Of a stretch of 12,499 bases of DNA, positions 505 through 12,499 are shown in pieces (position 1 is the first letter of the stretch; each line of letters begins with the position of its first letter). A program made the position numbers and the translations under genes. Under the pieces are notes generated by a model. The model had not been told where the DNA came from. It was given only the letters and a program-made list of their open reading frames with translations, and searched no databases. The stretch lies in UHGV virus genome UHGV-0112872, one strand, 5' to 3'. Source of the DNA: a virus.

Positions 505-1536
505 TCAAAAACTTGCTATTGATGTTGGTAGTGTTGCCAGCGGATTAAACCGTAATGCAGTTTCCAGGTGATCCGGTGCCAGATGTGCGTAACGCATAGT
601 CATTTTTATATCGTGGTGTCCGAGAATTTTTTGTAAGGCCAGAATGTTTCCACCCGACATCATGAAGTGCGCCGCAAACGTATGGCGCAGAACGTGTGTC
701 AGTTGACCGCGAGGGAGCACGATAGACGTTTTTTCCATCACGGATAAAAATTGAAAATAGCAGTCTGTAAAGAAATTGAACCCATCAAGCGCCATGATCT
801 CTTCGTAAAGCTCTTTACTGATAGGGATGCTTCTGTTTTTCTTCCCCTTCGTTCTTACAAAGGTAATTCGGTATTTGGTCACCTGTGAGCGGGTAAGATT
901 TACGGCTTCACGCCAACGTGCGCCTGTGCTTAAGCATATCTTAACTACCAGTGCCAGAATTGGGTCCTGACGTTTGCAATCAGCCAGCAATTCAACAATC
1001 TGCTCATGGGTAAGCCATGCCATCTCTTTTTCTGCGATGGTGAATTTTCGCATGTTCTCCAGTGGGTTCGGATACGACCATTCGCCCAGGCGGGATAGTT
1101 CGCTAAAAACACTACTTAGATAGCTTTGCTCCAGGTTAATGGTGACCGGGCTTGCTCCTTTCTTCCATTTCTCGCTGAAGTAGATCTCACCTGTCAGGCG
1201 TTTATCTCGATAGTGGGCAAACATTTTAGATGTGAGATCAGTTGCAAGGGGATTGCCCAGAGCGTCAACCATCAGCAGCAATTTGTCATAGACATGCTGC
1301 CCAGCTGTCAGAGATTTACCATGTAGTTTGAACCATAGCTCAACCACGTCTTTCAGTGTTCGACGATCCACTGATTCACCCAGCCAGGGCTTTGCTTCGG
1401 TTTCTTCCATCGTGTGGCGCTCAAAAGCCAGTGCTTCGCCTTTGGTGACGAATTGTTTACGCACACGACGCCCACTACGTCCGGCGGGGTAACATTCGCA
1501 AAGCCATTTTCCTGTGGTGAGTTTTCGTACAGCCAT
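505..1536 (-). CDS. int: Tyrosine integrase, P2/186 family
   Basis: Six-frame ORF 505..1692; start assigned to the internal ATG at 1536, preceded by GGAGGG (product begins MAVRKLTTGKW). Tyrosine-recombinase signature segments present: ICLSTGARWREA (Arg), HVLRHTFAAHFM (H-x-x-R), GHHDIKMTMRYAHL (catalytic Tyr region). Overall pattern matches my recollection of the P2 Int C-terminal domain. Confidence 0.9.
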   Translation of the reverse strand: MAVRKLTTGKWLCECYPAGRSGRRVRKQFVTKGEALAFERHTMEETEAKPWLGESVDRRTLKDVVELWFKLHGKSLTAGQHVYDKLLLMVDALGNPLATDLTSKMFAHYRDKRLTGEIYFSEKWKKGASPVTINLEQSYLSSVFSELSRLGEWSYPNPLENMRKFTIAEKEMAWLTHEQIVELLADCKRQDPILALVVKICLSTGARWREAVNLTRSQVTKYRITFVRTKGKKNRSIPISKELYEEIMALDGFNFFTDCYFQFLSVMEKTSIVLPRGQLTHVLRHTFAAHFMMSGGNILALQKILGHHDIKMTMRYAHLAPDHLETALRFNPLATLPTSIASF

Positions 1537-1724
1537 AAAAAATGCCCTCCAATAGAGAGCATTTTTACTGTATGTATAACCAGTGTCAATGTATGAAATC
1601 CTGCGACCATACATCTCACTGAAGCCATAATGAAGTAGGCTATTCTTTTTGCTATGTGAGCATGTAACTTTTGCGGTTAACCTGTGGCTCATTTTTATTT
1701 TAGGCGCAGATATAAAAGCAAAAG

Positions 1725-1931: not shown

Positions 1932-2501
1932 CTATTTAACATACTTGACTGTTAAACTTATAATTTTACCAATTATTTCAATGTCTTCTATCTTGCATTC
2001 GAAGGCTCTGTTTCCACCCTCGACGAAGATTCTTCCACCGGGTAAACGAGTAATGTCACGGATCGTTATTTCGCCATCAATACTTATTACCCATTTACCA
2101 TCACGTATATCATCAAATTCCTTATCACAAATAAATTCAGAATTATTATCTGTGATTACAAAAAGATTCTTGAATGCCGACGGTAGAAATTCTCTATCGA
2201 AAATATAAAAACCGTCTTCACACAAGGCCCCATCAGATAATACATATTTAGCAACTTCCATAGTATTTGTATTACCTGAAGTTTGCTTTGAACCATGCCC
2301 GGTTGTGAGCCAATTAAGCGAGGTGCCTGTTTCAAGGGCGCACTGGATTACCCATTCTGCTGGGAATGAGTCACGCATGTAGCGTGTGGCGAGTGTACTT
2401 TTAGAGATTCCTAAATGATCGCACAACGCCTGTCGAGTCTTGAATCCATAAGCTTCTACCATGCGCTCTATAGCGCCTCGTCCGCCTTTCTCCAAATTCA
2501 T
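1932..2501 (-). CDS. cI: CI-like immunity repressor (186-type), HTH DNA-binding protein
   Basis: About 189 aa from ATG at 2501 (GGAG 7 nt upstream; an alternative in-frame GTG lies at 2507). Helix-turn-helix-like segment TRQALCDHLGISKSTLATRYM near the N-terminus. Leftward orientation upstream of int and divergent from the Apl/CII operon matches 186 architecture. Confidence 0.75.
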   Translation of the reverse strand: MNLEKGGRGAIERMVEAYGFKTRQALCDHLGISKSTLATRYMRDSFPAEWVIQCALETGTSLNWLTTGHGSKQTSGNTNTMEVAKYVLSDGALCEDGFYIFDREFLPSAFKNLFVITDNNSEFICDKEFDDIRDGKWVISIDGEITIRDITRLPGGRIFVEGGNRAFECKIEDIEIIGKIISLTVKYVK

Positions 2502-2507
2502 GGTCAC

Positions 2508-4454: not shown

Positions 4455-4681
4455 TGGCTGATGCAATGGATCTCGTACAGCAGCGCGTTGAAGAAGAACG
4501 CCAGCGCCATATCCGTGCTGCCCGTGCCAAAACACCGGGCGTGTCTCGCGTGCTTTGCATTGAATGTGAAGCACCAATTCCGCCAGCACGCCGCCGTGCC
4601 ATTCCTGGAGTGCAGCTTTGCATTACCTGTCAGGAAATCGCAGAGCTGAAAGGCAAACATTACAACGGAGGTGCTGTATGA
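4454..4681 (+). CDS. TraR/DksA-family C4 zinc-finger protein
   Basis: 75 aa with paired CxxC motifs (CIECEAPIPPARRRAIPGVQLCITCQ), typical of DksA/TraR-type zinc fingers found in P2-like early regions; AGGAGA upstream. Confidence 0.8.
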   Translation: MADAMDLVQQRVEEERQRHIRAARAKTPGVSRVLCIECEAPIPPARRRAIPGVQLCITCQEIAELKGKHYNGGAV

Positions 4682-5535
4682 GCACCATCCTGAAATGGGC
4701 GGGAAATAAAACCGCAATTATGTCCGAACTGAAAAAATACCTACCTGCTGGCCCGCGACTGGTTGAACCTTTCGCGGGTTCCTGTGCTGTGATGATGGAG
4801 ACGGATTACCCCAGCTATCTGGTTGCGGATATTAATCCTGATTTAATCAACCTCTATAAAAAGATTGCCGCTGATTGCGAGGCGTTTATATCGCGGACCA
4901 GAACTTTGTTTGAGGAAGCAAACAGTGACCTAGCTTATTACAACATAAGGCAGGAGTTTAATTACTCAACTGAAATTACTGATTTCATGAAAGCGGTATA
5001 TTTCCTGTATCTCAATCGTCACGGTTACCGTGGTTTATGTCGCTATAACAAGAGCGGGCATTTCAACATCCCCTACGGTAATTATAAAAATCCGTATTTC
5101 CCTGAAAAAGAAATTCACGCATTTGCAGAAAAGGCCCAGCGAGCAACGTTTATCTGCGCCAGCTTTGATGAAACGCTGGCGATGTTGAAGGCGGGGGATG
5201 TGGTGTATTGCGATCCGCCGTATGACGGCACGTTTTCCGGTTATCACACTGACGGCTTCACTGAAGATGACCAGTATCACCTGGCATCCGTTCTTGAACA
5301 TCGGTCATCAGAAGGACATCCAGTCATTGTTTCTAACAGTGACACATCCCTGATCCGTTCGCTGTATCGCAATTTCACTCACCACTACATCAAGGCAAAA
5401 CGCAGCATCGGCGTGTCAGCTGGCGAGAGTAAATCTGCAACAGAAATCATTGCTGTTTCCGGGTCGCGCTGCTGGATGGGATTTGATCCTTCGCGTGGCG
5501 TGGATAGTTCTGCCGTGTACGGAGTACGTGCATGA
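4678..5535 (+). CDS. dam: Dam-like DNA N6-adenine methyltransferase
   Basis: 285 aa; ATG 4678 overlaps the upstream stop (ATGA). AdoMet-binding motif I ([11 protein letters not shown]) near the N-terminus and catalytic DPPY ([10 protein letters not shown]) downstream, the Dam-type arrangement; N-terminal KWAGNK is Dam-like. Confidence 0.85.
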
Positions 5536-7946
5536 GTCATGCCGATATGAACAACTGCTGCGGCTTTAACGAGGCTGCCGCAGCATTTTCATGGAACGGC
5601 CCGAAAAAGGCCATTAACCCTTATCTGGATCCGGCGGAAGTTGCGCCGGAGTCTGCACTTTCAAACCTGATCACTCTGTACGCTGCCGATAACGAGCAGG
5701 AACAACTGCGCCGCGAGGCACTGAGTGAGCAGGTCTGGGAGCGTTATTTCTTTAATGAATCCCGTGATCCTGTCCAGCGCGAAATGGAGCAGGATAAGCT
5801 CATTAGCCGGGCAAAGCTGGCGCATGAGCAGCAGCGTTTTAACCCGGACATGGTCATTCTGGCAGATGTCAGCGCCCAGCCTTCTCATATCAGCAAGCCG
5901 CTGATGCAACGTATCGAATACTTCAGCAGCCTGGGCAGGCCAAAGGCTTATTCCCGCTATTTGCGTGAGACGATTAAGCCATGTCTGGAGCGACTGGATT
6001 GTGTACGTGACAGTCAGCTATCTGTTTCTTTCCGTTTTATGGCAAGCCATCAAGGGCTGGAGGGGCTGCTGATCCTGCCTGAAATGAGCCAGGATCAGGT
6101 GAAACGCCTGTCCACCCTGGTAGCAGCGCATATGAGCATGTGTCTTGAGGCCGCTTGTGGTGATTTGTACGCCACCGATGACGTTAAGCCAGAAGAAATC
6201 CGCAAGACATGGGAAAAGGTGGCAGCGGAAACCCTGCGTCTGGATGTTATCCCGCCTGCGTTTGAGAAACTTCGTCGGAAAAGAAACCGCCGCAAACCTG
6301 TGCCCTATGAACTCATACCGGGTTCGCTGGCACGTATGCTTTGCGCCGACTGGTGGTATCGAAAATTGTGGAAGATGCGTTGCGAATGGCGGGAAGAGCA
6401 GTTGCGTGCTGTCTGTCTGGTCAGCAAAAAAGCATCTCCCTATGTCAGCTATGAAGCAGTGACGCATAAACGTGAGCAGCGCCGCAAGTCGCTGGAGTTT
6501 TTCCGTTCTCATGAACTGGTGAACGAAGACGGAGACACGCTGGATATGGAAGATGTGGTAAACGCCAGCAGCAGCAACCCGGCACATCGCCGCAATGAGA
6601 TGATGGCCTGCGTTAAAGGTCTGGAGCTTATCGCGGAAATGCGCGGTGACTGCGCCGTTTTCTACACCATCACCTGTCCGTCACGTTTCCATTCCACGCT
6701 CAATAACGGCAGACCAAACCCGACCTGGACAAATGCGACGGTAAGACAAAGCAGTGATTATCTGGTCGGCATGTTTGCTGCATTTCGTAAGGCGATGCAC
6801 AAAGCCGGATTGCGGTGGTATGGCGTGCGGGTGGCTGAGCCGCATCATGACGGTACTGTGCACTGGCATCTCATGTGCTTCATGCGTAAAAAAGACCGCC
6901 GCGCCATCACTGCATTACTGCGTAAGTTTGCCATCCGTGAAGACCGCGAGGAACTGGGCAATAACACGGGGCCACGCTTTAAGTCTGAGCTGATTAACCC
7001 GCGCAAAGGAACGCCGACAAGCTACATCGCGAAATACATCAGTAAGAACATTGACGGGCGTGGTCTGGCTGGCGAGATCAGCAAGGAAACGGGTAAATCC
7101 CTGCGTGATAACGCTGAATACGTTAATGCCTGGGCGTCTCTGCATCGTGTTCAGCAATTCCGCTTCTTTGGCATTCCGGGGCGTCAGGCTTACCGTGAAC
7201 TGCGATTGCTGGCTGGTCAGGCGGCAAGGCAGCAGGGTGACAAAAAAGCAGGTGCGCCGGTACTGGATGATCCGCGTCTTGATGCCATTCTGGCTGCTGC
7301 TGATGCTGGCTGTTTTGCCACCTACATTATGAAGCAGGGCGGCGTGTTGGTTCCCCGCAAATATCACTTGATCAGAACCGCTTATGAAATCAACGAAGAG
7401 CCGACCGCCTATGGTGATCACGGTATTCGTATTTATGGCATCTGGTCACCCATTGCAGAGGGCAAGATCTGCACTCATGCAGTGAAGTGGAAAATGGTTC
7501 GTAAGGCCGTTGACGTTCAGGAGGCGGCAGCCGACCAGGGCGCTTGCGCCCCTTGGACTCGTGGCAATAACTGTCCCCTTGCTGAAAATTTGAACCAACA
7601 AGGGAAAGACAAATCAGCTGATGGGGATACCAGGACGGACATTACCCGCATGGATGACAAGGAGTTGCACGATTACCTGCACAGTATGAGCAAAAAAGAG
7701 CGCCGGGAACTGGCTGCAAGGTTACGCCTGGTGAAACCGAAACGGCGTAAAGACTACAAACAGCGAATTACAGACCATCAGCGACAGCAGCTCGTCTATG
7801 AACTGAAGTCCAGAGGATTTGATGGCAGCGAGAAAGAGGTCGATTTACTCCTTCGCGGCGGCAGTATTCCGTCAGGAGCAGGCCTGCGTATCTTCTATCG
7901 GAACCAGCGTTTGCAGGAAGATGATAAGTGGCGAAACCTGTATTAA
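5532..7946 (+). CDS. A: Replication initiation endonuclease, gene A type (rolling-circle / HUH)
   Basis: 804-aa ORF, ATG 5532 overlapping the dam stop (ATGA) with GGAG upstream. HUH-type metal-binding motif (HWHLMCF) and downstream paired tyrosines (YIAKYISK), as in P2 gpA-family proteins. Confidence 0.9.
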
Positions 7947-8099: not shown

Positions 8100-8288
8100 A
8101 TGCAGGACTATTTTTTGGAGTCTTTGAAGCTCCAGCGCATTGATTTTTTTCTTAAGCTTGTAGCGGCTAGTGAGTGTAGTGATGAAGAGAAGGGGCTGGC
8201 CCTGCAATGGGTTTCTGAACTAACAGATGAACTCATGGCAAAAATCAGAACCCACGAATACAACCGCTCAATGGATGTCATCAGCTGA
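8100..8288 (+). CDS. Small protein (62 aa) in LexA-controlled operon, occupying the position of the 186 Tum antirepressor
   Basis: ATG 8100 preceded by GGAGGA; first ORF downstream of the LexA box. Identity as a Tum-like antirepressor is positional inference only. Confidence 0.5.
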   Translation: MQDYFLESLKLQRIDFFLKLVAASECSDEEKGLALQWVSELTDELMAKIRTHEYNRSMDVIS

Positions 8289-8298
8289 GGTGACTTTT

Positions 8299-8532
8299 AT
8301 GCGCATTGAAATAATGATCGATAAAGAGCAGAAGATTAGCCAGTCTACCCTGGATGCCCTTGAATCCGAGCTTTACCGCAATCTGCGCCCCCTGTATCCC
8401 AAAACGGTAATTCGTATCCGCAAAGGTAGCTCTAACGGTGTGGAACTGACCGGACTGCAACTGGACGAAGAAAGAAAACAAGTGCTGAAAATTATGCAGA
8501 AGGTGTGGGAAGACGACTGCTGGCTGCATTGA
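8299..8532 (+). CDS. dinI: DinI-family protein
   Basis: 77 aa beginning MRIEIMIDK and ending WEDDCWLH. It aligns by eye with E. coli DinI (MRIEVTIAK ... ETWESADDWF): shared MRIE start, DAL..EL motif, central hydrophobic core, C-terminal acidic W-containing tail. GAGGTGA upstream. Confidence 0.8.
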   Translation: MRIEIMIDKEQKISQSTLDALESELYRNLRPLYPKTVIRIRKGSSNGVELTGLQLDEERKQVLKIMQKVWEDDCWLH

Positions 8533-8668
8533 TAGGTTTCGTTTGTAATGAGTCATGTTTTTTGAGTCCGATAGTAGACAGCTAGAGGGATAAATGATTA
8601 ATAGATAGATTAAACATAGTGATGGGCGTAAAATCGCGCGCATTTTATTGGCAACGGATCTGAACTCA

Positions 8669-9562
8669 ATGGCGGATAAGACTCAATCAGTAAGTATTGT
8701 GTATCAAGGCAAAGCTCTCGACGATCATAAGATGGATATTCTTTCGTTTGCGAAAAGTTTGCAGGGGCTAGGTGAGGCTATCTACTCTGCAAATGAGATT
8801 GTAAACGGAGGGCGAGACATTGAAGTTAACGTTGACGCTGAATTGATAGCCGGTTCCTTTGGGTTTGATATTGAGGTTGTACAACATCTAGCTAATGCTA
8901 AAGATGTTGTACAAATTTTAGGTTTGTCAGCCATTCCTTTAGCCGTTGGCGGTGCTACAGTTTTAGAGGTTCTCAAGAAGCTTAACGGGCGTAAGATCGA
9001 CATAGTCGAGAAAGCTAACGGTAGTGACAAAGTTAAGCTGAAAGTCGATGGTGAAGAGATTGTTTGCTCTGAAGATGTCGAAAAAATCGTTAATGCCCCA
9101 GAGATTCGTAAGGCTGTTGACGCGTTTGTCAGACAGCCTCTGTTACAAGATGGTATCGACAATTTTGTGGTAAAAAAATCGCGCACCTCTAAGAAAGAAA
9201 TCCTCAAAATTCATAAAGATGAGGCAGAAGAGTTTAAGTCGCCAAAAGTTCTCTTTGAAACCAAAGAAGAAGTTGACGAATTTGAAACAACCGTGACATT
9301 CGTTTCGGCGCATACTGACAAAAAAAGTGGCTGGCGTGTTGAGTTTGGCGGTGAAAAGCGCAATGTCAGAATGGAAGATAATGAGTTCATCAAGCTTGTT
9401 ACTGGACCAGACGCCCCCAAAATTTTTGGCGAATTGTTTGCTGTGAAGATGAAGAAAATTGTGAAAGATTCCGGTGGCCAGGTAGACGAAAAGTTATCGA
9501 TCATCAAAGTGGGTCGACACTTTGCCGCCAAAGATAGAAAAATAAAACCTGATGCGGATTAA
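8669..9562 (+). CDS. Cargo module 1, gene 1: uncharacterised 297-aa Lys/Glu/Asp-rich protein with one internal hydrophobic segment
   Basis: Long ORF (ATG 8669; alternative in-frame TTG 8648) in an AT-richer block. Hydrophobic stretch ILGLSAIPLAVGGATVLEVL around residues 85-105, then a long highly charged region. No catalytic motif recognised. Confidence 0.6.
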   Translation: MADKTQSVSIVYQGKALDDHKMDILSFAKSLQGLGEAIYSANEIVNGGRDIEVNVDAELIAGSFGFDIEVVQHLANAKDVVQILGLSAIPLAVGGATVLEVLKKLNGRKIDIVEKANGSDKVKLKVDGEEIVCSEDVEKIVNAPEIRKAVDAFVRQPLLQDGIDNFVVKKSRTSKKEILKIHKDEAEEFKSPKVLFETKEEVDEFETTVTFVSAHTDKKSGWRVEFGGEKRNVRMEDNEFIKLVTGPDAPKIFGELFAVKMKKIVKDSGGQVDEKLSIIKVGRHFAAKDRKIKPDAD

Positions 9563-9564
9563 AA

Positions 9565-9828
9565 ATGTCTATAGATATTAGTGTGTTAGGATGGTTGGGG
9601 CTGCTTGTTGCAGCTCCAGCTATATTTATAGGTGCTAGAGTGGCTATACGTAGCCTGCTCGATCGAGTTATTGTCGAAACAAAAGTTTCTATCACTTATA
9701 CTGATGCAAACAAAAATGTCTATAAAACAAATATTTATATAAACAATGATGATGAGTTAATAAAGCTCATCGATGATATAGCAGAGAAAAATAAGCGTGA
9801 GAGGAAGGAGTCAGCCTCTCATGCCTGA
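9565..9828 (+). CDS. Cargo module 1, gene 2: small single-pass membrane protein (87 aa)
   Basis: ATG 2 nt after the upstream stop (tight coupling); N-terminal hydrophobic helix GWLGLLVAAPAIFIGARVAI followed by a charged soluble tail. Confidence 0.55.
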   Translation: MSIDISVLGWLGLLVAAPAIFIGARVAIRSLLDRVIVETKVSITYTDANKNVYKTNIYINNDDELIKLIDDIAEKNKRERKESASHA

Positions 9829-10237
9829 ACAAAAGAAAACAAGCGGTAAAGCAGTCGGTGTTACAGGTGGCGGCGGTGTAGGCCTTTTCCTAATAAAGCT
9901 GGCTAGCTTCATTACAGATCCAACATGGAAAGACCTTTACATTGCTTCAATACCGATGGTGTCAATTCTTTTAAGCGAAGTTTTTACTTTTGCATGGACG
10001 ATTTATGCTGTTGATCCGCAAGAAATCAAACTGAAAAGGCGGTTGAAGGCTCTGAAGAAGCAAGCCGAAGCAGTTTTAAATGCACCATCGTCCCCTGTTT
10101 CTCCAGAAATGCGAGAGAAAGCGCAGGCTCGTTACGACGTGATCTGTGGAATTGAAATGGGAATTTACCCCCTCTCAATTGTAAATACGCTAGATGGAAA
10201 AGTATCCCCCACAGCGCAAACGCCGGACGTTAAATAG
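9821..10237 (+). CDS. Cargo module 1, gene 3: small two-helix membrane protein (138 aa)
   Basis: ATG 9821 preceded by GGAAGGAG and overlapping the upstream gene by 8 nt. Two hydrophobic segments (GVGLFLIKLASFI; IASIPMVSILLSEVFTFAWTIYAV) followed by a Lys-rich helical tail. Confidence 0.55.
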   Translation: MPEQKKTSGKAVGVTGGGGVGLFLIKLASFITDPTWKDLYIASIPMVSILLSEVFTFAWTIYAVDPQEIKLKRRLKALKKQAEAVLNAPSSPVSPEMREKAQARYDVICGIEMGIYPLSIVNTLDGKVSPTAQTPDVK

Positions 10238-10300
10238 CAGTTTCTACTTTGCATGACTATGCTGCATGAAATCGCATGATCGTTTGAGGATCGTTTTTGC

Positions 10301-10328
10301 AAAAGCCCGCCAGAACTGGCGGGCTTTT
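10301..10328 (+). terminator. Rho-independent terminator closing the right-arm operon
   Basis: GC-rich inverted repeat GCCCGCC (10305-10311) / GGCGGGC (10318-10324) followed by TTTT (10325-10328) and preceded by AAAA. Confidence 0.7.
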
Positions 10329-10373
10329 GCGTAGAGCATGCATCTGCATGAAAACCACTACATAAAGCGGGCA

Positions 10374-10392
10374 GGCGTGGCGGGGATACGAG
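10374..10392. other. Candidate cos site (cohesive-end motif of P2/186-type phages)
   Basis: GGCGTGGCGGGGATACGAG followed by GCGCGCGCT. The first 13 nt match the 186 cohesive end as I recall it (GGCGTGGCGGGGAAAGCAT; P2 is GGCGAGGCGGGGAAAGCAC), and the flanking GCGCGCT resembles the sequence next to the P2 left end. These reference sequences are from memory. Confidence 0.6.
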
Positions 10393-10522
10393 CGCGCGCT
10401 AACTCTTGGCTTTGTTTCATAATCAAAAATGTGATCATTGAGATTATTCTTAAATTTGTGTTTGTCTATGAAATATCATTTCGCTTAACATTGTTTGAGT
10501 TAGGACTACATGAGAATAAAGA

Positions 10523-11098
10523 ATGCTTTTACCCGTAAGTATTACATCGTGTGGCTTGTATCACCCCTACTGGCATTTGGGAGAGCGCAACCCTCATAGC
10601 GATGAACTATCAAGGCAGATGATGGATTTTAAGGATGAAAATAATCGTAATCATCAAAGGGCCATTAACCGTTTTTCTCGATTAGCTATAGATAAGGTTG
10701 GGCGGTTAGTAATCAGAGGTGGCGGTGGGCGTTTTGTTGAGTCTCCTTTTTCGATAGCAGTTGTCCCGTCTCACACTGAAGGCAGAATTTCACCGGCTTT
10801 GATTGAGGTCGCCGAGCGAATCGTAAATGTTCACCGTCGGGGCATTGTTGATTGCTGTTTGGAAAGAACACGCACTGTTCCTAGCGCACATCGTGAAGGT
10901 GGAGATCGCTCAATTACTGGTCACATGTCTAGTATCAGAGTTAGGGGTGGTAACCTCATGGGGCGAAATGTGTTACTACTAGATGATGTTAAAACAACAG
11001 GCGGTAGTTTGTCTGCGTGTTTTTATTTACTGGAGTCTGCAGGAGCTGGAGTTATAATGCCATTAGCTCTGCTAGAAACTGCAAACTATGAGGAGTAG
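10523..11098 (+). CDS. Cargo module 2, gene 1: phosphoribosyltransferase (PRTase, type I) domain protein
   Basis: PRPP-binding signature VLLLDDVKTTGGSL near the C-terminus, the classic type I PRTase motif also seen in ComF-like proteins. Start uncertain: ATG 10523 has a weak RBS; in-frame ATGs at 10619/10622 are alternatives. Confidence 0.7.
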   Translation: MLLPVSITSCGLYHPYWHLGERNPHSDELSRQMMDFKDENNRNHQRAINRFSRLAIDKVGRLVIRGGGGRFVESPFSIAVVPSHTEGRISPALIEVAERIVNVHRRGIVDCCLERTRTVPSAHREGGDRSITGHMSSIRVRGGNLMGRNVLLLDDVKTTGGSLSACFYLLESAGAGVIMPLALLETANYEE

Positions 11099-12062
11099 CA
11101 AAGTGCACTCAGAAGAATTAAAAAATACACTTGGATTAGCTATTCAAATCGGGAAGCTAGCATCTGATCAAAGTGTATTAAAATTCTTTGAGCTTATCGA
11201 TTTTGATGTTATTCGTGATATACGCGACTTAACTGAGATGGTTAATAGCCACGGGTTTCTAAAAGATAAAATATCTGAGACTGATTTTCTAATAGCGAAC
11301 GCTGAATTGGAGAACCACCATGTTAATGGTGTGGAGCTAATACCATATGGGTCTGAATTCTATCCTCTTAGTTTAGCTTTTACTCCTAATCCACCATCAA
11401 TTCTCTACATAAAAGGGGATAAAAGTATACTCAAAGAATTGCCGGGTGTCGCAATTGTAGGATCCCGTGATACCTCCCCTGCAGGGGAAGAAATAACGAG
11501 GCGGATCACTAATCAGATAGTGTCTGCTGGGTATATTGTTGTAAGTGGGTTAGCAATAGGCACTGATGCGAATGCTCACAAGGCAACGTTACAGGCAAAA
11601 GGAAAAACCATTGCTGTCTTGGCGCATGGTCTTGAGGAGGCTAAGCCGAAGCAAAACAGTCGACTTGCTCAAGAGATTCTGGATAAAGGTGGTGCATGGA
11701 TTTCTGAGTATCCTATGGGTCGGCCGGCCCAGAAACAATCATTTGTACAAAGAAATCGGATACAAGTTGGATTATCTGCAGGTTCAATTTTAATCGAGGC
11801 TGCGTTAAATAGCGGAACGATAACTCAAGCTGAGTTTGCAAATAAGGCGAAAAGACCAGTGTTTGCGGTTGTACCTCACCTACCTAATAATCCGCTTAAT
11901 CTTAATTGTGAGGGAACAGTTGATTTAGTTAAGAGCAACATGGCTAGAGCGCTAAAAACAAAACGGGATTATGATGATGTGATTATGATCATAAATGAGT
12001 CCCGGGAGTATTTGTTAGAGCTAAAATGGCCAGGGAAACAGAGTACATTAGACTTGATTTAA
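11088..12062 (+). CDS. Cargo module 2, gene 2: DprA/Smf-like (SLOG / Rossmann-fold DNA-processing-A domain) protein
   Basis: Segments GVAIVGSRDTSPAGEE, VVSGLAIGTDANAHKATL, KTIAVLAHGLEE, SEYPMGRPAQKQSFVQRNRIQVGLS and RPVFAVVPHLP follow the conserved order of DprA/Smf cores. Overlaps the PRTase gene end; an in-frame GTG at 11103 with AGGAG 7 nt upstream is a plausible alternative start. Confidence 0.8.
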   Translation: MRSSKVHSEELKNTLGLAIQIGKLASDQSVLKFFELIDFDVIRDIRDLTEMVNSHGFLKDKISETDFLIANAELENHHVNGVELIPYGSEFYPLSLAFTPNPPSILYIKGDKSILKELPGVAIVGSRDTSPAGEEITRRITNQIVSAGYIVVSGLAIGTDANAHKATLQAKGKTIAVLAHGLEEAKPKQNSRLAQEILDKGGAWISEYPMGRPAQKQSFVQRNRIQVGLSAGSILIEAALNSGTITQAEFANKAKRPVFAVVPHLPNNPLNLNCEGTVDLVKSNMARALKTKRDYDDVIMIINESREYLLELKWPGKQSTLDLI

Positions 12063-12085
12063 AGCGCCTCTTTTAGAGGCACTTT
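12061..12085. terminator. Hairpin between convergent genes, possible bidirectional terminator
   Basis: Stem GCCTC (12066-12070) / GAGGC (12076-12080) with TTTTA loop, extendable with one mismatch, followed by T-rich sequence. Sits in the 24-bp gap between the DprA-like stop and the convergent portal-like stop. Confidence 0.4.
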
Positions 12086-12086
12086 G

Positions 12087-12499
12087 CTAAATTTGATATC
12101 TCTCGAATTTTATAATTTCTTCACCGCTCCAATGATTAAATTCTTTCATTCTTTTTTGTAATGGTAATAATTCATTTTTCACAAATACCTTACTAGCTTT
12201 TTCTACATCCCCAAATCCCCCAACATTATTAGGCATTATCCCCATCATTTGTGGCGGCACACGATGCGCTGCCATCATGTCATCCCGACTCACGTTCTTG
12301 ATGTTAAGAAATTCATCCTTCGCCGCGACTTCTGACAACGGGATGATCTGAAGCCCGTCCTTTTTGCCGTTAGGCGAGTACATAAACAGGTTGCGGAAGT
12401 TGCCAGGGCCTTTGGCGCTTTTCATCGCATTGCGGAGGTTGTTCACATCCTCCTGGTTCTGCGCGGCATCGGTCATGTACATGATGAAGCCTGCATGAC
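12087..12499 (-). CDS. Portal-like protein (P2 gpQ position), C-terminal part; gene continues beyond the window
   Basis: Minus-strand ORF open to the window edge (...PPQMMGIMPNNVGGFGDVEKASKVFVKNELLPLQKRMKEFNHWSGEEIIKFERYQI). Leftward orientation next to cos matches the Q/portal position in P2/186; family assignment is by position and general resemblance only. Confidence 0.55.
   Translation of the reverse strand, partial: HAGFIMYMTDAAQNQEDVNNLRNAMKSAKGPGNFRNLFMYSPNGKKDGLQIIPLSEVAAKDEFLNIKNVSRDDMMAAHRVPPQMMGIMPNNVGGFGDVEKASKVFVKNELLPLQKRMKEFNHWSGEEIIKFERYQI

Follow-up and report, generated by a model that had tools for sequence, protein, structure and literature searches.

Two exchangeable cargo bays around cos in the accessory hotspot of a P2-family prophage

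The virus genome UHGV-0112872, a stretch of 12,499 nucleotides (nt) analysed here as a whole and hereafter called the window, represents the left arm of a 186/Fels-2-type prophage in the P2 family. Its positions 8533-12086 raise the question of whether the genes between a DinI-like gene and the portal gene are a fixed part of the phage or exchangeable cargo, and whether they form one unit or two. This interval is exactly the gap between the DinI-like and portal genes (3.55 kb), as the initial annotation had placed it, and it corresponds to an accessory (anti-phage) hotspot that earlier publications describe next to cos in P2-family prophages, spanning gpA/DinI to the portal gene. The hotspot was found to consist of two independently exchangeable bays around a 150-bp cos island, which is a refinement and not a new phenomenon. 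The best explanation of the whole, to which we assign a probability of roughly 0.8, is that this known hotspot comprises two exchangeable bays swapped by recombination, in which slot A holds an exclusion or abortive-infection cassette (module 1) and slot B holds a short-form ShosTA system (module 2). The features on which this explanation depends are as follows.

5532-7946, plus strand: gpA replication endonuclease, a conserved gene that anchors the hotspot on the left (Pfam Phage_GPA, 3.5e-128)
8299-8532, plus strand: DinI-like gene, the last conserved gene ahead of slot A (Pfam DinI, 8.4e-21)
8531-10249: slot A, variable bay on the gpA side of cos, at the right end of virion DNA; equals the orf91-tin-old position of P2
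8669-9562, plus strand: gene a of module 1, soluble protein of 297 amino acids (aa), PDC-S42 / NF053583 'LAPAL' / phrog_3243 family; the open reading frame (ORF) opens at TTG 8648
9565-9828, plus strand: gene b of module 1, 87 aa, one N-terminal transmembrane (TM) helix (hydropathy and conservation across 10 loci)
9821-10237, plus strand: gene c of module 1, 138 aa; hydrophobic Gly-rich segment, TM helix, and charged helix at the C-terminus
10250-10399: conserved cos island, 150 bp, common to all relatives, with TGCAT-type repeats, terminator, and cos core
10293-10337: bidirectional intrinsic terminator hairpin closing the module 1 operon, with perfect 15-nt arms at 10299-10313 and 10316-10330
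10361-10399: junction of the module 1 lineage and the module 2 lineage, on the cos core
10374-10392, plus strand: predicted 19-nt cohesive end (cos), GGCGTGGCGGGGATACGAG, with deduced cut positions
10400 to about 12100 (12101): slot B, variable bay on the portal side of cos, at the left end of virion DNA; extends into the 3' end of the portal gene
10523-11098, plus strand: shosT-like gene, 191-aa short ComF-like phosphoribosyltransferase (PRTase), predicted toxin (PADLOC ShosT, 3.7e-14)
11088-12062, plus strand: shosA-like gene, 324-aa DprA-like protein, predicted antitoxin (PADLOC ShosA PDLC03961, 2.8e-70)
12087-12482, minus strand: portal gene gpQ, 3' part only, which anchors the hotspot on the right (Pfam Phage_portal), with its stop-proximal end at 12087

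Breakpoints were mapped by blastn of the window against 10 annotated E. coli loci, and the cos island was aligned across 11 sequences. The carriers of module 1 matched the window from gpA through 10399 at 99.8-100% DNA identity; all five diverged at 10400/10401 and re-aligned only from 12102-12181 in the portal 3' end, at 83-92% identity. The carriers of module 2 matched the window from 10249/10250 to its end at 12499 with 97.6-99.4% identity. Four of these five (L002, L003, L008, and L009) also share the left flank, and their homology there stops at 8530; in the fifth, L010, gpA is divergent and left-flank similarity is patchy. L002 showed 0 differences from the window over 10361-12499, portal part included. 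Because identity to L002 begins at 10361 and identity to the module 1 carriers extends to 10399, the junction of the two lineages lies within 10361-10399. The 3' end of the portal gene (12087-12181) has a mosaic structure that varies together with the slot-B cassette: in ShosTA carriers it belongs to the block matching the window at 97.6-99.4%, and in relatives with other slot-B cargo its identity is 83-92%, which indicates that the right-hand recombination breakpoints lie inside the portal coding sequence. Both bays are used in Klebsiella and Salmonella phages with an identical cos core as well; for example, slot B contains AIPR, Abi-alpha, or Hypoth_Ymh in these phages, and slot A contains a 225-aa ORF or is empty.

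The contents of the two bays assort separately. Module 1, at 99.8-100% DNA identity, was paired with at least nine different slot-B contents, among them an 89-aa ORF, DUF262, ParA with a partner (L005), a SieB-family protein, two kinds of GmrSD, Hypoth_Ymh, DUF4062, a minus-strand pair of 60-aa and 216-aa ORFs, and ShosTA. Module 2 was paired with at least five different slot-A contents, including a 111-aa minus-strand ORF, two other ORFs, DUF2971, a KAP-type P-loop NTPase, and four small ORFs. This separate occurrence, with differing partners in the other bay, agrees with the proposal of the initial annotation that the modules are independent. The combination of module 1 with ShosTA found in the window was also present in the draft genome GCA_001902665.1 (locus L037, MPGP01000002.1), at 98.2% identity over 6.2 kb. 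This locus differs from the window in having a ShosTA allele of the L008 type and a divergent gpA. The different allele indicates that the pairing was assembled more than once or that slot B was exchanged again. No direct repeats flanking either module were found, and homologous recombination is therefore favoured over transposition or site-specific insertion. Cassettes would be swapped between related phages by recombination, with the conserved flanks and the cos island serving as homology. In addition, the linear virion chromosome has one bay at either end; any single crossover between co-resident phages would therefore reassort them, and the position of the lineage junction on the cos core fits such reassortment by a single crossover between linear genomes. 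That all five genes constitute one system and only appear to be two modules is hardly credible, since their common orientation and adjacency in the window and in L037 are outweighed by the strong terminator and cos that stand between the modules, by the 8 and 23 complete E. coli genomes that hold one module and never both, and by the occurrence of module 1 alone in unrelated phages.

The anatomy of the interval is in accord with this division. The five cargo genes are all on the plus strand and form two tightly packed groups. In module 1, a 2-nt gap is followed by an 8-nt overlap, and the two genes of module 2 overlap by 11 nt; this spacing indicates two operons. The terminator hairpin is flanked by A and T runs, and its folding energies were -31.8 kcal/mol on the plus strand (z -5.9) and -27.9 kcal/mol on the minus strand (z -5.6). 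In a promoter and terminator scan of the window, counts were not above those of shuffled sequence, and this main hairpin, whose T-run is only 4 nt, was missed. The predicted cohesive end aligns to the annotated cosL/cosR of P2 (GGCGAGGCGGGGAAAGCAC) with 14 of 19 bases identical, and its flanks are conserved relative to P2 on both sides (AAGCGGGC and GCGCGCT). A search with the P2 cos 19-mer at up to 3 mismatches gave no match; the site carries 5 mismatches and was located by alignment. A 29-mer cos core did not vary across 15 loci of E. coli, Klebsiella, and Salmonella phages. Gene spacing, the hairpin fold, and the P2 cos alignment thus bear out the claim that five cargo genes are arranged in two operons split by a terminator and cos.

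Repeated TGCAT(G/T)A motifs (TTGCATGAC, CTGCATGAA, CGCATGAT, and GCATGCATCTGCATGAAAACC) were observed within the part of the island on the gpA side of cos (10250-10373), and similar repeats occur at the equivalent place in the right end of P2 (L033, NC_001895). On the portal side, the sequence is variable from 7 bp past the 19-nt cohesive end. The presence of repeats on the gpA side, together with this variability, suggests that the terminase recognition elements are located only on the right-end side of cos.

The composition of the interval was compared with that of the core. The GC content was 41.9% for the interval and 53.2% for gpA, whose GC content at third codon positions (GC3) was 0.573. 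The pooled GC3 of the five cargo genes was 0.359, compared with 0.548 for a core set consisting of dam, gpA, orf8100, dinI, and the portal 3' end (chi-square 83.8, p = 5e-20). The GC content of slot A was 41.3%, and that of the cos island (10250-10399) was 54%. Genes rich in AT also occur outside the cargo, namely the CI repressor gene in the immunity region (GC3 0.35) and int (GC 0.46). The interval is therefore AT-rich as the initial annotation had claimed, in contrast to gpA, DinI, and the portal gene and not to the phage as a whole.

Among 5426 complete E. coli genomes, the flanks were present in 1289, module 1 in 8, module 2 in 23, and both modules in 0. These counts and the synteny of relatives agree with the claim of variable content between conserved flanks, and more than 12 different hotspot contents were seen across the loci compared (E. 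coli, Klebsiella, and Salmonella phages). Neither a core-like composition nor the presence of the same genes in all relatives, the two outcomes against which that claim had been set, was observed. The interval occupies the gpA-gpQ position in a P2-family phage, adjoins cos, and shows a high turnover of content, as does the cos-proximal anti-phage hotspot that Rousset et al. (2022, PMC9122126) described in P2-like phages. That article reports 1650 arrangements among 18,150 loci, and the exact proteins of both modules appear in its Table S5A. The same hotspot, also called the 'TO region', was re-analysed in Nucleic Acids Research (NAR) in 2026 (PMC13586616), and the recombination process is called unresolved in the passages of that report found by term searches. 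The shared properties are the gpA/DinI and portal anchors, the adjacency of cos, the small size (3.55 kb), and the high turnover; in the passages of both articles found by term searches one single hotspot is described, whereas two bays split by the cos island, with sharp breakpoints and a lineage junction on the cos core, were seen here.

In P2 itself, orf91, tin, and old are all located on the gpA side of cos, that is, in slot A, and slot B is merely 167 bp of non-coding DNA from cosL to Q. The supposed identity of the interval with the tin/old position consequently holds for slot A and module 1 but not for slot B, which is empty in P2. Even in slot A, between gpA and cos, the resemblance is one of location: the proteins are unrelated, and tin/old are transcribed leftward from a promoter near cos, whereas module 1 runs rightward and ends at the terminator before cos.

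What, then, does the slot A cassette do? Gene a is a full-length member of the PDC-S42 / NF053583 / phrog_3243 family, matching PADLOC PDC-S42 at 7.8e-44 (profile positions 3-293 of 302), NCBIfam NF053583 at 2e-56 (191.6 bits, well above the 60-bit cutoff, and covering profile positions 2-290 of 292), and phrog_3243 at 1.6e-59. The family contained 1216 cluster representatives at E<=1e-3 (clusters at 50% identity), all of about 280-320 aa. The AlphaFold2 model of gene a had a predicted local distance difference test (pLDDT) score of 92.4; no full-length structural match to it was found, and a profile search of PDB sequences was also empty. Against Pfam, gene a gave only a weak N-terminal match to DUF7946, seen in 27 of 105 family members, and no functional domain was matched in the three module 1 proteins in PADLOC, Pfam, NCBIfam, or PHROG. 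A strong Shine-Dalgarno sequence (AGGAAGGAG) precedes the ATG of gene c at 9821. The order and sizes of the three genes are kept down to 25-27% identity of gene a, which is always followed by two small membrane-protein genes. A scan for related loci with a shallow alignment gave 4 loci only. Searching the literature for PDC-S42, 'LAPAL motif', and DUF7946 brought up no papers. In PADLOC-DB 2.0.0, gene a matched a model and genes b and c did not; we take the 'S' in PDC-S42 to denote a single-gene candidate.

The identical three proteins of module 1 are entered as P2-hotspot system #37, with 104 occurrences, in Table S5B of Rousset et al. (PMC9122126), where the system is listed without test and genes b and c are noted as '1 TM' and '2 TM', respectively. 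Module 1 is unrelated to the validated 'HP+HP+HP' and '2TM+1TM+TIR' systems of that study. Identity with the validated 'HP+HP+HP' (3HP) system was considered and rejected: the E1114 protein sizes (about 335, 350, and 226 aa) differ, and blastp of module 1 against the three E1114 3HP proteins gave nothing better than E = 1.6. Compared with lambda RexAB and the P2-like AC1 '2TM + 1TM + TIR' system (Rousset et al. 2022), only the logic is analogous, in that prophage-borne soluble and small membrane proteins are combined. A RexA-like fold was not found in the soluble component of module 1.

The cassette was found in P2-like, lambdoid, Mu-like, and siphovirus-like backbones, and its surroundings varied accordingly. 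It lies directly downstream of a CI-like repressor gene, on the same strand, in Proteus mirabilis lambdoid prophages (L013/L015) and in a metagenomic locus (L028). In phage lambda, rexAB is likewise located directly downstream of the CI repressor gene on the same strand. Elsewhere, another Proteus phage carries the cassette with tail genes on either side, and a Mu-like phage has it flanked by Mu F/tail_S and the Mu protease. In a Klebsiella prophage it adjoins an Imm_superinfect gene, and in an Aeromonadaceae contig it is located upstream of large head-region ORFs of 661 aa and 530 aa. The repressor-adjacent position hints at co-expression with the repressor in lysogens; it holds for the Proteus and metagenomic loci and not for this window, and the small TM proteins are conserved. 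Module 1 is thus a mobile moron cassette found in many unrelated temperate-phage backbones.

Most likely, module 1 is a lysogen-expressed exclusion or abortive-infection module, a function that we assign with moderate confidence. The cassette encodes a soluble 297-aa protein with ferredoxin-like and OB-like domains, an 87-aa protein with one TM helix, and a 138-aa protein with two; the gene a product would sense an infection cue, and the two small membrane proteins would act at the membrane. An alternative is that module 1 serves another lysogenic-conversion or selfish function, such as addiction through an action at the membrane, the timing of lysis, or an effect on host physiology. Cargo of this sort does occur at the site, since partition systems (ParA/StbA) and a cytolethal distending toxin are mentioned for the hotspot in PMC9122126 and ParA occupies slot B of L005, and the lack of functional domain matches in the three proteins fits as well. 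We nevertheless regard this alternative as unlikely, because gene a is listed by PADLOC as a phage-defence candidate, because the cassette lies downstream of CI-like repressor genes and beside an Imm_superinfect gene in other prophages, and because a layout of soluble and small membrane proteins is generally common in abortive-infection and exclusion systems, RexAB and AC1 among them.

A decayed prophage with part of module 1 was observed in NZ_CM132257.1 (L007). In this locus, IS1A truncates gene a, and DinI, gpA, and everything further left are missing; the host genes ybjI, ybjJ, and rcdA abut IS1A, and genes b and c, cos, and the late genes are retained.

The occupant of slot B could be assigned more directly. 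The ShosA-like protein matched Pfam DNA_processg_A (PF02481) at 1.4e-60 and the PDB entry of ShosA (9vzo) at 1.7e-29, and shows 36% identity over 198 aa with ShosA of APEC O1. The ShosT-like protein matched phrog_7188 at 4.5e-83 and Pfam Pribosyltran with 18.6 bits, below the 26.3-bit cutoff; no PDB sequence matched it at E<=0.01. Its phosphoribosyl pyrophosphate (PRPP) loop, VLLLDDVKTTGGS, contains the invariant residues D155, T158, and G160, and its N-terminus is conserved. Homologs of 189-193 aa occur in many Enterobacterales and in Shewanella. In five E. coli loci the shosT-like ORF is intact, with 5 synonymous substitutions against 1 non-synonymous (conservative) substitution. A shorter start at M33/M34 was considered, as phrog_7188 begins at residue 34, and was rejected because the 189-193-aa homologs conserve the N-terminus.

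The shosT-like ORF was left unannotated by the Prokaryotic Genome Annotation Pipeline (PGAP) in the RefSeq records of L002, L003, L008, L009, and L010, which show a lone 'DNA-processing protein DprA'. Among the 23 module 2 records, an extra hypothetical protein is listed at this place in ECCHD184 only.

Like the characterised ShosTA systems of APEC O1 and KTE181 (PMC11961720, PMC12961424), module 2 pairs a DprA-like antitoxin with a PRTase-fold toxin bearing a PRPP loop, encoded by adjacent genes in one operon of the same P2 hotspot. It differs from them in that the toxin is 191 aa long, ComF-like, and devoid of the HAD domain, and in that shosT precedes shosA and overlaps it by 11 nt; the characterised toxin architecture, a long HAD-like N-terminus joined to a non-canonical PRTase, is absent from the 191-aa ShosT. 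Module 2 fits the second ShosA/ShosT model pair of PADLOC, PDLC03961/03962, better than PDLC02997. On the basis of homology, module 2 is a distinct short ShosTA subtype with a putative defence role. The suggestion that the interval is a P2 position variable in antiphage content stands in so far as the hotspot is that of Rousset et al., but homology backs an antiphage role for module 2 only, and module 1 is a candidate. In the characterised systems, purine metabolism and DNA replication are poisoned by the PRPP-binding ShosT, and the damage is counteracted by ShosA, which binds single-stranded DNA (ssDNA) and RecA; T7 Gp0.7 and phage single-stranded DNA-binding protein (SSB) or primase-helicase have been linked to triggering or escape (PMC11961720, PMC12961424). 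By homology, the ShosT of module 2 would use PRPP to poison nucleotide metabolism, its ShosA would counteract the toxin via ssDNA/RecA-linked repair, and phage infection would release the toxin.

The same pair might instead be an aid to recombination or DNA processing, a ComF-like and DprA-like couple as in natural transformation. The RefSeq gene name 'DNA-processing protein DprA' and matches to TIGR00732 dprA (4e-55, 186.4 bits, just below the 191.15-bit cutoff) and TIGR00201 comF (weak; 1e-05, 25.5 bits, far below the 233.55-bit cutoff) point in this direction. However, the best matches are the PADLOC ShosA and ShosT models, the N-terminal zinc-finger region of ComF is absent, the pair is variable cargo in a defence hotspot, and pairs of DprA-like and PRTase proteins from the same hotspot have been shown to be toxin-antitoxin defence systems. 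A role in DNA processing is therefore improbable.

Still less probable is that gene a encodes a structural or morphogenetic protein and that the cassette aids virion assembly. This is what the full name of NF053583, 'LAPAL motif-containing putative phage structural protein', implies, and in two phages (L014 and L016) the cassette is located inside head or tail gene clusters. Against it, the cassette is present in just 8 of about 1289 flank-bearing E. coli genomes, so that it is not needed to build the virion; gene a is always linked to two small membrane proteins, is found beside repressor and replication genes as well, and has a low GC3, as in other cargo. The varied insertion sites and the presence in <1% of flank-sharing E. 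coli prophages both argue against a structural role.

Several points weigh against the explanation of two bays filled by an exclusion or abortive-infection cassette and a short-form ShosTA. We infer the single-crossover route, and a double crossover with the cos island and a flank gives the same product. The family name given by NCBIfam to gene a denotes a putative phage structural protein, which conflicts with its behaviour as a moron. The ShosT-like protein aligns with ShosT of APEC O1, a crystallised long HAD-PRTase, over about 44 aa around the PRPP loop, and with a 191-aa toxin and the order T then A, extrapolation of the ShosTA mechanism is uncertain. Finally, a promoter scan found none above chance for either operon, and expression in the lysogen is presumptive.

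The remainder of the window is that of a P2-family left arm, with the following further features.

505-1692, minus strand: integrase
1932-2507, minus strand: CI repressor, 186-type
4678-5535: D12-class Dam methylase (Pfam, 4.6e-76), directly upstream of gpA and overlapping it
8100-8288, plus strand: small ORF of 62 aa, before DinI in most relatives (phrog_698, 1.5e-37)
12061-12085: small hairpin between the convergent shosA and portal genes, AAAGCGCCTC-TTT-TAGAGGCACTTT, read from the sequence

Genes for CII/CP76, DUF5347, DUF2732, and a TraR/DksA zinc-finger protein are also located to the left of gpA. The 62-aa ORF is annotated as WP_001154434/WP_001154431 in every E. coli relative examined. 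The small hairpin at 12061-12085 is possibly a bidirectional terminator; it appears in folds and was not significant against shuffles of an 81-nt stretch. An Rfam scan of the window gave no RNA family at threshold. A 63-aa ORF on the minus strand (1725-1916), between int and the CI repressor gene, lies in a stretch of 36% GC and encodes a signal-peptide-like N-terminus and a Cys-rich tail; it had no Pfam match, and is possibly a further small moron at the int-proximal cargo site that PMC13586616 mentions. L010 carries an extra 273-aa ORF between Dam and gpA, and this gap may be another minor variable spot.

Taken together, the observation of the initial annotation is confirmed and its interpretation is supported, and the phenomenon is already known; the window is mainly a worked example of the published trading of cargo among P2-like phages. 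Three increments result: a bipartite layout centred on cos in which two lineages join on the cos core, which is a small addition; the placement of PDC-S42 within a conserved three-gene mobile cassette; and the systematically unannotated shosT. As shosT is unannotated in most RefSeq E. coli records, defence surveys based on annotation would miss the toxin and show a lone 'DprA'. Module 1 is a ready candidate for experiments, being a conserved cassette in unrelated temperate phages with a confident predicted structure and no solved full-length counterpart. The placement of two bays at opposite ends of the packaged DNA provides a mechanistic handle on swapping, and the two-bay model predicts that the bays are almost unlinked and that breakpoints accumulate at cos. 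A broader reading, which we put forward tentatively, is that module 1 represents a three-component system for phage defence or superinfection exclusion, widespread but so far unrecognised, and that, in addition, the hotspot is a pair of terminal bays reassorting via cos. In present catalogues gene a figures only as the candidate PDC-S42 or under the name of a 'structural protein'. If true, the free reassortment of terminal bays through cos would explain the very fast swapping of defence that has been reported for P2-family phages.

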